In this document: positions 14,646 to 24,607 of the stretch, one piece after another
How positions within the stretch are numbered: the stretch's first letter is position 1
Layout: every line of letters begins with the position of its first letter
Virus record (IMG/VR): IMGVR_UViG_3300037475_000032
Coordinates: 64,001 to 128,000 of that record
Source: a virus
Length of the DNA: 64,000 nt
Direction: 5' to 3' (one strand)
Notes under the pieces: generated by a model
Told to the model about the DNA's origin: nothing
The model's input: the letters and a program-made list of their open reading frames with translations, nothing else
The model's database searches: none
Translations under genes and position numbers: made by a program

Positions 14646-14718
14646 GCCCTTGTAGCCCAACGGACAAGGCACTCGCCTTCTAAGCGAGCGATTGGGGGTT
14701 CGATTCCCTCCAAGGGCG
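14646..14718 (+). tRNA. tRNA-Arg(TCT)
   Basis: cloverleaf, CTCGC ctTCTaa GCGAG. Confidence 0.93.
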
Positions 14719-16966: not shown

Positions 16967-17389
16967 GGGCCTGACAGGCTTCGACTTCATGAGAGGCTGT
17001 TGGCGTCATGCAGCGGTATGGACACACCTTAAGGTCCAACGTCATAATCGGCAACGATACAGACACGCTAGCAATCCCGGCATCGTTCCTTGCAGGTGAG
17101 CAGATGGCTCCTGCGGAGGTTCACGTCGGAGGCGCAGCACTCGCACTGGTTTAGACCCCAGTGCCGGGTTTCTCACACTCCCTGTGAACAGAAAGTGTGA
17201 GTGGTGCATCAGTGCAAGCTCGTACCGTAGTAATGCAGGATGGTAGCCCCGCGCGTTTTCCTAGTTTCCCGATATGAACTAGGTGGTGGAAAAGATGGCG
17301 GCAAGCCCGTCGTCCCCGGTAGTGAAAGCTGCTAGACAATGACCCAAAGAAGCGCATGGAACACGAGGGTTCGATTCCCTCCAGGTCCA
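16967..17389 (+). ncRNA. ssrA: tmRNA
   Basis: 5' GGGCCTGACAGGCTTCGAC, 3' GAGGGTTCGATTCCCTCCAGGTCCA with G3:U70; tag ORF 17050-17154 ending AALALV*. Confidence 0.93.
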
Positions 17390-17393
17390 CTAT

Positions 17394-19499: not shown

Positions 19500-19571
19500 G
19501 GCGATTTAGCTCACTGGTAGAGCGGCACGCTGAAAACGTGCGCGTACCGAGTTCGATTCTCGGAATCGCCA
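19500..19571 (+). tRNA. tRNA-Phe(GAA)
   Basis: cloverleaf. Confidence 0.93.
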
Positions 19572-20847: not shown

Positions 20848-20942
20848 GCGTCTGTAGCTGAATGGTAGAGTCGGCCTCAAAAACCGGCCACAGCACTGGG
20901 TTTTCACCCCAGCGGATGCGGGTTCAAGTCCCGTCAGGCGCA
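20848..20942 (+). tRNA. tRNA-Glu(TTC) with about 20-nt D-loop insertion
   Basis: CTGGG ttTTCac CCCAG; 95 nt. Confidence 0.8.
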
Positions 20943-21026: not shown

Positions 21027-21129
21027 GCCCTTGTGGCGGAATCGGCATACGCATCCGGCTTAAACCCGGCCACGCGAGCTTCCTCTCAACAAGGTCTCGC
21101 ACTTGAGGGTTCGACTCCCTCCAAGGGCA
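21027..21129 (+). tRNA. tRNA-Leu(TAA), oversized variable arm
   Basis: ctTAAac; 103 nt. Confidence 0.85.
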
Positions 21130-21728: not shown

Positions 21729-21802
21729 GCTCCTCTGGTGTAACGGTTAGCACAACTGGTCTTATAAGCAGTCAGGTCGGGGTTCAAATCCTCGGGGGAG
21801 TA
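21729..21802 (+). tRNA. tRNA-Ile(TAT), bulged anticodon stem
   Basis: ACTG(G)T ctTATaa GCAGT. Confidence 0.75.
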
Positions 21803-21814
21803 CTTGCAGCATAC

Positions 21815-23498: not shown

Positions 23499-23572
23499 GC
23501 ACTTGTAGCTCAGATGGTAAGAGCACTGGCTTGAAACCCCAGGTGTCGGAGAGTCGAAACCTCCCAAGTGCA
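23499..23572 (+). tRNA. tRNA-Phe(GAA), atypical T arm
   Basis: cloverleaf. Confidence 0.85.
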
Positions 23573-23863
23573 TGTAGTAGACGGCCGCTGTCCCTAGACT
23601 GGGGATAGAGGAAGTTCGGGACATCCTGGCCTGGGAAACTGGGTCGCTTCCGTAACCAGGAGGCATAGACAACTGACGTGTGGCGGGAGCCCTTGGCGCT
23701 TGAACCGAGCACGGTTGGTGAGGATGCAATCTCAAGCAGCGAAACCTAAGGGCTCTGCCTATGGTCATAGCGGGTTGGGAGCAGCGTGGGGATAACACCC
23801 TATACGCCACGCGCGAGCGTGAGAAAGATGGTCGTCCTAGACAGAATCCCGGCTACAGCTACA
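23573..23863 (+). ncRNA. rnpB: RNase P RNA (compact)
   Basis: CR-I GAGGAAGTTCGGGAC and CR-V ACAGAATCCCGGCTA pair as P4; P1, P2 (GACGGCC/GGTCGTC), P3 and P5 (CATCCT/AGGATG-CAA) are present. Confidence 0.87.
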
Positions 23864-23867
23864 GTAT

Positions 23868-23939
23868 GCCTGCTAAGCATAAATGGTGATGCACTGGTCT
23901 TGTAAACCAGATAACTGGGTTCGATTCCCAGAGTAGGCT
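23868..23939 (+). tRNA. tRNA-Thr(TGT)
   Basis: cloverleaf. Confidence 0.92.
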
Positions 23940-23968
23940 TCTCGCTCCATCCCTCGACTTAAGAGGTG

Positions 23969-24457
23969 ATGAGTGACTTTCGTGTGATCCAAGGATGCCC
24001 GTGTAACCCTACACTGGCCCCGTACATCGCCATGGTCTCTGAGGAGATCAACGGTGTCGTCAACAGTATCTATCGTGGTGCTGATGCCGAGTCGATCCTT
24101 CGAGCACACGGACACCAGAGTCAGGCCCAACTCTACAACGGTTGGATTCACAGGTTGCCGGGATACCTTCCCGCTAACCCTCCTGGCCGAAGCACTCACG
24201 AGCTTCGCTCCGATGGAGTCGCTTACGCGGGTCCGGTAGGTCGCAAGCTCGATTGGTGGCAGCAGGGCTTCGACGTGAATGACGATCAGGTCAATCACTG
24301 GAAGTCCGCAGCACGCAGCCATGGATGGGTACTCTTTCAGCCGTACAACAGCGGCTCCGAGTTCCACCACCTCAACTTCCATCAGCCTCCGCATCCGCCG
24401 AGTCTGAGAACGAGATTGAGGATCATCAAGTTGCGAGCGACGCTGCCACGTCACTAA
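23969..24457 (+). CDS. M15-like Zn peptidoglycan peptidase
   Basis: QAQLY..ANPPGRSTHE..DV..EFHH. Confidence 0.7.
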   Translation: MSDFRVIQGCPCNPTLAPYIAMVSEEINGVVNSIYRGADAESILRAHGHQSQAQLYNGWIHRLPGYLPANPPGRSTHELRSDGVAYAGPVGRKLDWWQQGFDVNDDQVNHWKSAARSHGWVLFQPYNSGSEFHHLNFHQPPHPPSLRTRLRIIKLRATLPRH

Positions 24458-24535: not shown

Positions 24536-24603
24536 GCGCACGTAGTCTAAGTAGGACGCCCGCCATGAGGCGGGTAGTGCAGGTCCGACCCCTGCCGTGT
24601 GCT
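24536..24603 (+). ncRNA. tRNA-like RNA with 4-6 nt anticodon loop
   Basis: GCGCACG/CGTGTGC-U, CCCGCC atga GGCGGG, T arm GCAGG tccgacc CCTGC. Confidence 0.65.
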
Positions 24604-24607
24604 CTAT

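Follow-up and report, generated by a model that had tools for sequence, protein, structure and literature searches.

Genomic Setting of the Locus

The window analyzed here is a stretch of 64,000 nucleotides, bases 64001–128000 of a 160,765-bp virus record that has direct terminal repeats and is rated complete. The phage encodes a terminase, a portal protein, a replicative helicase, and a ribonucleotide reductase. Cluster C (Bixzunavirus) mycobacteriophages, with genomes of ~155 kb, have portals that share ~40% identity with that of the phage, and the homologues of a gene neighboring the locus include two annotated from Solirubrobacteraceae and Mycobacterium MAGs. On the basis of these two sequence similarities, the host of the phage is likely actinobacterial. 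The sequence was obtained from, and recurs in, metagenomes of soil.

Between positions 14646 and 25075, the window contains a co-oriented array of 47 genes called by ARAGORN, a tmRNA included. The features that concern us most are the following:

23499–23572, + strand: tRNA-Phe(GAA)-like gene (RF00005, 52.3 bits), immediately 5′ of the RNase P RNA
23573–23867, + strand: phage RNase P RNA homologue, 295 nt (RF00010 match; homologues at the same syntenic spot)
23868–23939, + strand: tRNA-Thr(UGU) (ARAGORN and Rfam), starting 4 nt after the 3′ strand of P1
44210–47701, + strand: 1163-aa ORF with a C-terminal CCA-adding tRNA nucleotidyltransferase (phrog_2244, E 6e-65, residues 714–1139)

The 295-nt RNA fills the entire gap between the tRNA-Phe-like gene and tRNA-Thr(UGU). 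An earlier note on this DNA had described it as directly flanked by tRNAs, and both flanks are confirmed, the upstream one with the anticodon GAA and the downstream one as tRNA-Thr(tgt). The upstream gene, which duplicates a canonical tRNA-Phe(GAA) at 19500–19571, has non-standard pairs and mismatches in its anticodon and T stems; this is probably why ARAGORN misses it, but the program calls a tRNA-Phe(gaa) at the same place in the related contig L208. The main role of the gene may be that of a signal for processing the ribozyme at its 5′ end.

None of the 47 tRNA genes of the array encodes the 3′ CCA. The ends called by ARAGORN are followed by a U in 44 of the 47 cases, and in most of them a C after the discriminator precedes that U. 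For the tRNA-Phe-like gene, the U that follows is U23573, with which the ribozyme begins. Judged from its recurrence, this U looks like a uniform 3′-processing signal. In Bacillus, CCA-less tRNAs are matured by an RNase Z-type 3′ cleavage and subsequent addition of CCA, and by analogy the CCA-less ends and the U would fit such a route. Only the last ~430 residues of the 1163-aa ORF match the CCA-adding enzyme, which leaves the first ~700 residues outside the match.

A number of other elements of the array are worth recording. ARAGORN calls a 424-nt tmRNA at 16967–17390 with the tag ASSYRSNAGW*, for which the Rfam scan at the gathering threshold has no tmRNA counterpart. The elements at 21729–21803 and 24536–24604 are tRNA-like with abnormal anticodon loops (ARAGORN "tRNA-???", two-base anticodon); L208 carries a tRNA-Arg(tct) at the position of the latter. 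Two Rfam tRNA matches that ARAGORN leaves uncalled, 20848–20942 and 21027–21129 (95 and 103 nt; 59.9 and 49.1 bits), may have a long insertion or arm. Also inside the array is a 163-aa gene (23966–24457) with 270 homologues at E ≤ 1e-5, mostly unannotated, the best 120 of which are 48–95% identical. At least two of the homologues listed are fused to a peptidoglycan-binding domain (PF01471), from which the gene is probably a cell-wall enzyme.

Identification of the RNase P RNA

The Rfam class A model RF00010 matches positions 23569–23870 of the window (+ strand) from end to end (model positions 1–367) with a score of 38.6 bits. The E value is 1.3e-10 locally and 8.7e-12 when all 160,765 bp of the complete phage genome are searched, which contain no other RF00010 locus. 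The score does not reach the gathering score of the model, which is 100 bits; a scan of the window at the gathering thresholds returns only tRNAs, and the RNase P RNA surfaces with permissive filters only. The covariance-model search proposed in the earlier note has thus a double outcome, namely a full-length match and a score below the gathering value. Despite the latter, the homology to RNase P RNA is supported by the genome-wide E value together with the full-length alignment.

The alignment covers P1, P2, P3, CR-I, P5, J5/15, P15 with CGGGU, J18/2, and CR-V, and it treats the specificity (S) domain as mostly deleted. The core motifs that it places in the window RNA are GAGGAA..UC.GG, GCAA, CGGGU, AGA..AUGG, and ACAGAA.CC.GGCUA. 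The compact phage RNase P RNA that had been claimed is accordingly found with its catalytic-core layout intact, and from its sequence we regard it as a genuine but divergent homologue of bacterial class A RNase P RNA. The gene for the protein subunit, rnpA, had been reported as absent from the window, and a six-frame search of the complete 160.8-kb phage genome with PF00825 indeed gives no match at E ≤ 10.

The window RNA belongs to a small subfamily that further comprises a 170-kb virus (G001), whose portal is 69% identical to that of the window phage and whose RNA scores 56.9 bits with RF00010, the metagenome contig L189, and the contigs L208 and L209, which were reached via the adjacent 163-aa gene (78% and 95% identical, respectively). 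The portal and the neighboring lysin-like proteins are 69–78% identical across the members. A tRNA-Thr(UGU) lies directly downstream of the RNA in all five, 1–7 nt after P1, and in the window, L208, and L189 a tRNA abuts the 5′ end as well. Scanning metagenomes with the subfamily signature gave 65 loci, L189 alone being real, and the same scan of viral contigs re-found G001 and nothing else. Among the contigs fetched via the 163-aa gene, L208, L209, and the partial L212 are syntenic; L210, L211, L213, L214, and L215/216 are not, and they were set aside.

L209 (178–557) represents a near-identical strain in which an unrelated stretch of ~100 nt, probably folded, takes the place of the 7-nt tip of P12. 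The L209-type variant is also represented by contigs of three metatranscriptome libraries from soil, in which 106 other letters stand for window positions 23680–23700. We take these contigs as a weak hint that the L209-type RNA is transcribed, as assembled contigs are unable to show the ends, strand, or level of an RNA or to prove transcription.

Catalytic Domain

The elements of the catalytic domain and its periphery are, in order along the + strand:

23573–23578, + strand: 5′ strand of P1, pairing with 23858–23863, 6 bp (RNAduplex)
23580–23586, + strand: 5′ strand of P2, pairing with 23830–23836; 7 pairs, 100% of cells paired, 1 double-sided change
23588–23608, + strand: P3 hairpin, 6–11 bp in all five members, with unrelated sequences
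23608–23622, + strand: CR-I variant GAGGAAGUUCGGGAC, including the 5′ strand of P4 (Rfam alignment to the CR-I consensus)
23622–23627, + strand: 5′ strand of P5, pairing with 23721–23726; 6 pairs, 3 changed on both sides
23726–23780, + strand: region of J5/15, P15, a P16/17-like element, and L15 (Rfam alignment)
23726–23729, + strand: J5/15 GCAA (Rfam alignment)
23730–23733 with 23777–23780, + strand: P15; 4 pairs, 2 changed on both sides
23771–23776, + strand: CGGGUU, counterpart of the L15 GGU motif (Rfam alignment)
23784–23807, + strand: extra hairpin, variable periphery (MFE fold)
23808–23821, + strand: P18-like hairpin with a GCGA tetraloop (MFE fold)
23841–23855, + strand: CR-V ACAGAAUCCCGGCUA, including the 3′ strand of P4, 23847–23854 (Rfam alignment, covariation)

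P1, P2, P3, P5, and P15 follow one another in the canonical order, together with the GCAA of J5/15, the GGU of L15, and J18/2. The P4 pseudoknot is formed by 23613–23621 and 23847–23854 around a bulged U, with 8 pairs, 97.5% of the cells paired, and 2 double-sided changes. All the core elements that the earlier note had named (P1–P5, CR-I, and CR-V, with P4) could therefore be located. Compared to the bacterial consensus, the CR-I of the window has one A fewer and the bulge is shifted by one pair, and the P4 pair following the bulged U is a U-G. The periphery at 23784–23821 differs in both sequence and length in every relative.

Covariation was evaluated on five sequences (the window, L209, L208, L189, and G001) with a model composed of the RNAalifold helices and the P4 pseudoknot, the pairs being counted on the five-sequence alignment. 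The model contains 50 pairs in 9 helices, and standard pairs are found in 97.2% of the cells. The number of pairs with double-sided changes is 21, to be compared to 8.0 ± 2.1 in shuffles, none of 500 of which reaches 21, and to 2–4 in controls with slid partners; the helix model was partly derived from the same sequences. The helices supported across the relatives are P2, P4, P5, two hairpins, P10, P11, P15, and the P16-like element, each with at least two double-sided pairs except P2 and the P16-like element. RNAalifold, run on the five sequences, independently predicts P2, P5, the two hairpins, a three-part arm, and P15. P1 (6–7 bp by RNAduplex) and P3 could not be aligned by MAFFT, yet they are formed in all five members with different sequences.

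The comparison of the window with L209, its nearest relative, is instructive in this respect. Apart from two peripheral elements that are swapped, every substitution within a helix leaves the pairing intact, namely G-U to G-C at 23640, a double change of G-C to A-U at 23680/23710, U-A to U-G at 23711, and U-G to U-A at 23778, and there are no substitutions in CR-I, CR-IV, and CR-V. The more distant L189 is altered inside CR-I and CR-V (GAGCUAAG and GCAGAA). The catalytic domain is thus kept, with P1–P5, P15, CR-I, CR-IV, and CR-V. The pair-preserving and compensatory changes show structural selection on the RNA and argue against a relic, within the frame of five sequences and a model partly derived from them.

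Specificity Domain

The S domain, which had been estimated at about 100 nt, measures 93 nt between the strands of P5. The covariation counts, the RNAalifold consensus, and the comparison with E. coli rnpB define the following elements:

23628–23720, + strand: reduced S domain, 93 nt
23629–23644, + strand: hairpin with a GAAA loop at the position of P8
23646–23664, + strand: hairpin with the loop GUAACCA at the position of P9
23672–23674 with 23717–23719, + strand: P10, ACU/GGU (E. coli counterpart ACC/GGU)
23677–23680 with 23710–23713, + strand: P11, CGUG/CACG (E. coli counterpart GUGC/GCAC)
23682–23689, + strand: conserved GGCGGGAG (J11/12), enclosed by the P10–P11 arm
23687–23699, + strand: variable tip at the position of P12

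All members but one have the loop GUAACCA. As an alternative to P11, a local CCG/CGG hairpin at 23704–23713 was considered; P11 was preferred because it covaries.

The domain falls short of the full P7–P14 arrangement with CR-II and CR-III: P13 and P14 have no counterpart in the window RNA, CR-II has diverged, and CR-III is partly retained as GCACGGU, the 3′ strand of the arm, which is identical to the corresponding stretch of E. coli rnpB. The canonical P6 is apparently absent and P5 and P7 are fused, P5 running straight into the junction, so that there is no J5/7 segment. J11/12 reads GGCGGGAG in the window and CAACAGAGAG in E. coli, and the AAA that follows P10 in E. coli is missing. As a consequence of these two differences, the recognition of the tRNA elbow may be weakened.

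The recognizable P10 and P11 and the GCACGGU shared with E. coli speak against a rewired S domain. Archaeal RNAs have a minimal P7–P12 layout, and the S domain of the window RNA appears, from the comparison of sequences, to be a trimmed canonical domain close to that layout rather than a rewired one.

Proposed Long-Range Pairing

The earlier note had also singled out an 8-bp complement between the S-domain loop and a downstream segment as a possible replacement strut. The complement is present at the places given, GAGCCCTT at 23687 and AAGGGCTC at 23748; it is perfect, and it is the longest and the sole one of that length in the RNA. Its role as a conserved strut, on the other hand, is not supported, as the pairing lacks covariation and the tip is replaced in L209 and L208. 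The two halves are located as follows:

23687–23694, + strand: 5′ half GAGCCCUU, the variable P12 tip, replaced by longer sequence in L209 and L208
23748–23755, + strand: 3′ half AAGGGCUC, within the P16-like element 23744–23765

A perfect complement of at least 8 bp is found in 35% of 1000 dinucleotide shuffles of the RNA, and the complement alone is therefore not beyond chance. On the alignment, the pairing has no double-sided changes, and its measures are not above those of shuffled or slid controls. The P12 tip between GGCGGGAG and CG..GAACCG is 7 nt long in the window and 8–9 nt in L189 and G001 (7–9 nt overall), to be compared to ~50 nt in L208 and ~97 nt in L209, where its sequence is unrelated. 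The base helix of the P16-like element (23744–23746 with 23763–23765) covaries, being A-U, C-G, and G-C in different members, and the C-to-G change of G001 that breaks a long-range pair is matched by a G-to-C within the local hairpin.

When the tip and the loop are allowed to pair in any register, the duplex of the window has an energy of −15.9 kcal/mol, which 0.6% of the tip shuffles equal. The complementarity is marginal in G001, where 5.8% of the tip shuffles are as good, and absent in L209, L208, and L189, where each RNA's own tip against its own loop is no better than the shuffles. This any-register test rules out that the tip–loop pairing persists among the relatives in another register.

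One can still envisage that 23687–23694 and 23748–23755 do pair, as a strut that replaces the lost S-domain contacts by bridging the tip of P12 and the loop of P16 in the manner of P6. The topology of such a bridge would resemble that of the canonical P6, which the window RNA apparently lacks, and the complement extends to ~10 bp, is seen in the MFE fold, and is of a quality that is unusual for a tip and a loop of this composition. However, we consider this quite unlikely, in view of the frequency of equally long complements in shuffles, the lack of compensatory changes, the replaced tip and missing complementarity in the relatives listed above, and the local compensation in G001; the L209-type variant, which is without this strand, is moreover the form recovered from the three RNA libraries. 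Regarding the conserved strut specifically, we judge it very unlikely. A lineage-specific, P6-like contact that could form in the RNA of the window phage has a somewhat better standing and is nonetheless doubtful.

Distribution in Viruses and Search for Cellular Copies

Many viral contigs were retrieved with a CR-I pattern of 15 nt, and among the loci fetched, 40 besides the window have the CR-I variant and the CR-V motif on the same strand, spaced by 140–379 nt. In 37 of these 40 there are tRNA genes within 2 kb, and in 22 within 150 nt. Eight of the viral copies were scanned with RF00010. Five of them, on contigs of 83–360 kb, score 158–189 bits and exceed the gathering score of 100, two shorter ones score 82 and 52 bits, and for the eighth (L006) Rfam reports no RNase P match. 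The window RNA carries the provisional marks of this phage clade, i.e., the CR-I GAGGAAGUUCGGGAC, a CR-V of the form ..AAUCCCGGCUA.., a viral contig, and a position among tRNA genes.

Several of the viral loci beside tRNAs have CR-I and CR-V only 140–174 nt apart (L066:6553–6707, L087:11090–11245, L097:11198–11353, and L035:9832–9988, among others). From this spacing, they are candidate RNase P RNAs essentially without a specificity domain.

In a true RNase P context, the 18-nt CR-I signature GAGGAAGUUCGGGACAYC, which is the CR-I variant extended by the three bases that follow it, was encountered in viral contigs only, where at least 9 of 13 matches are RNase P-like. In the genomes of 185,579 prokaryotic species (one each) it has 48 matches, none in an RNase P context: all of them are at the chance level, and they have no CR-V partner and no significant nhmmer match, the three weakest nhmmer leads giving no Rfam match either. 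In 151 sampled genomes of one actinobacterial family, likely that of the host, the cellular RNase P RNA has 385–460 nt and scores 227–311 bits, and no second copy of the phage type was found. The one second match in these genomes is a 156-nt fragment beside a genuine rnpB and was discarded. The negative result applies to the sampled genomes and does not bear on the two mycobacterial strains for which extra copies have been published. This fragment (L280, G145:C1:193336–193491) is an RF00010 match of 31.4 bits that spans the full model and lies ~250 nt downstream of the genuine rnpB. Partial duplication would account for it, or it may represent a miniature element of the RNase P type.

Among 50,697 cultured phage records, a blastn search with the locus returned matches to its tRNA parts only, and one with a canonical phage copy (L073) returned only a misfiled Salmonella rnpB. 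Judged by the portal, the closest cultured relative is the cluster C mycobacteriophage TinyTim (40% identity), in which RF00010 finds nothing at E ≤ 1.

These results bear on the question of whether the RNA could be a decaying, functionless remnant of an rnpB captured from the host. The low Rfam score, the lost helices, and the variable periphery are what such a remnant might display. It would, however, hardly retain structure-preserving and compensatory changes across members whose portal and lysin-like proteins are 69–78% identical, nor a conserved position in the tRNA array. The length and the score of the sampled host-family RNAs further imply that the window RNA is not a recent host capture, and the 18-nt signature is without RNase P context in the species genomes searched. 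We consider a remnant most improbable, and as judged against the genomes sampled, the RNA is not a host gene in disguise.

Proposed Function

On the whole, we favor, with some confidence, the reading that the locus supplies the catalytic RNA of an RNase P tuned to the phage, which takes its RnpA from the host and is probably active. We infer that the RNA would be transcribed as part of the + strand tRNA array. Maturation of the tRNA-Phe-like element upstream, at the 3′ end of that element, would free the 5′ end of the RNA, and the 3′ end of the RNA would arise when RNase P, possibly the ribozyme itself, cuts pre-tRNA-Thr at the start of the tRNA. The RNA would then assemble with the host RnpA, which is the most probable partner because the phage is without rnpA. 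As the distant cluster C kinship suggests an actinobacterial host, actinobacterial RnpA proteins are reasonable first partners. The resulting holoenzyme would trim the 5′ leaders of the 47 closely packed phage pre-tRNAs and tmRNA, and the CCA-less tRNAs would be completed by the CCA-adding enzyme of the phage. What speaks against this scenario is that no phage protein partner was found, that CR-I is a variant, that J11/12 and the segment after P10 depart from E. coli, that L189 is altered within CR-I and CR-V, and that the score is 38.6 bits as compared to the gathering score of 100.

An alternative is that the ribozyme is active without the host RnpA, either alone or with an unrecognized phage protein, so that the phage could dispense with the enzyme of the host. 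While rnpA is missing, many phage genes have no assigned function, and the heavy investment of the phage in a tRNA machinery of its own would be in line with such independence. Nothing in the phage points to a partner, however, and bacterial RNase P RNAs require their protein in vivo, with trimmed RNAs tending towards greater protein dependence. This alternative is accordingly rated as improbable.

The RNA could also be a non-catalytic look-alike, a decoy or regulator that, e.g., binds the host RnpA or pre-tRNAs and thereby redirects or throttles the tRNA processing of the host. The reduced S domain and the altered CR-I are compatible with this, and there is a viral precedent in the orthopoxvirus RNase P-like RNA, which is summarized as having no pre-tRNA processing activity in vitro and discussed as a possible decoy (PMC3001073). 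On the other hand, the catalytic core, including P4 and CR-V, is the most conserved and covarying part of the RNA, and a protein decoy has no need of the P4 geometry, the GCAA of J5/15, or the GGU of L15. Related viral contigs, in addition, hold copies above the Rfam gathering threshold. A decoy is therefore rather unlikely in our view, and a catalytic subunit working with the host RnpA is retained as the preferred reading.

Relation to Known Systems

RNase P RNA is generally counted among the housekeeping ribozymes that all cells share. Compared to E. coli M1 RNA (rnpB) and RF00010, the window RNA keeps the order and pairing of P1–P5, the P4 pseudoknot with its bulged U, CR-I, the GCAA of J5/15, P15 with the GGU motif, J18/2, CR-V, P10/P11, and the identical GCACGGU. 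It is shorter, with 295 nt as opposed to 377 nt in E. coli and 385–460 nt in the sampled actinobacteria, and it differs in having no P13/P14 and apparently no P6, fused P5/P7, and a hypervariable tip for P12. Also unlike E. coli rnpB, the gene resides in a phage, flush between tRNAs and without rnpA.

Naturally reduced RNase P RNAs are known, such as the archaeal type A RNAs, which lack P13, P14, and P18, that of Mycoplasma fermentans (about 276 nt), and the Pyrobaculum type T RNA, whose S domain is almost absent. In these, as in the window RNA, the reduction concerns the specificity domain and the periphery while the core is kept. Those RNAs, however, are the sole enzymes of their cells and have known protein subunits, whereas the window RNA is accessory: it belongs to a virus, and the host of that virus has a full-size RNA of its own.

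In Mycobacterium austroafricanum and M. sp. YC-RL4, additional homologues of RNase P RNA whose specificity domains are altered have been described and attributed to possible horizontal transfer; in the former species, a second tmRNA was traced back to a mycobacteriophage (Behra et al. 2022, PMC9569102). These copies are reported as bacterial genes (PMC9569102), while the window copy is a phage gene. The orthopoxvirus (camelpox) RNA resembles the window RNA in being virus-borne and proposed to be RNase P-like, and it is summarized as having only "some secondary structure similarity" and no pre-tRNA processing in vitro (PMC3001073). The window RNA differs from the camelpox RNA as there described in being a statistically supported homologue with a covarying core, situated among its presumed substrates. 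Theta (HDV-like) ribozymes adjoin the tRNAs of gut phages and are implicated in tRNA maturation (PMC10879173). They are small self-cleaving ribozymes of unrelated fold, unlike the window RNA, which is of the trans-acting RNase P type. No description of a phage-encoded RNase P RNA was found in the literature searched, a 2024 field review included, and the class as a whole appears to be undescribed in that literature.

Implications

The presence of a phage copy among its own substrates suggests that large phages take over the first step of tRNA maturation, besides tRNA supply and CCA addition. The Rfam gathering threshold conceals the clade from routine annotation. The series of S domains, from full size through 93 nt to the forms with 140 nt between CR-I and CR-V, is ready-made for asking which functions require the S domain.

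More tentatively, large phages may possess an RNase P ribozyme lineage of their own, with a shifted P4/CR-I, that is active and self-releasing and ranges from full size down to ~200 nt, the 295-nt form being an intermediate that keeps P10–P12. We regard this combination as possible rather than probable. Self-release is conceivable because the ribozyme constitutes the 5′ leader of pre-tRNA-Thr, 1–7 nt from the cleavage site, and could thus cut itself free. If such a lineage exists, it would mature a set of CCA-less tRNAs that the host enzyme handles poorly, giving the phage control over its tRNA supply, and its members would reveal, as experiments made by nature, to what extent a specificity domain can be reduced.
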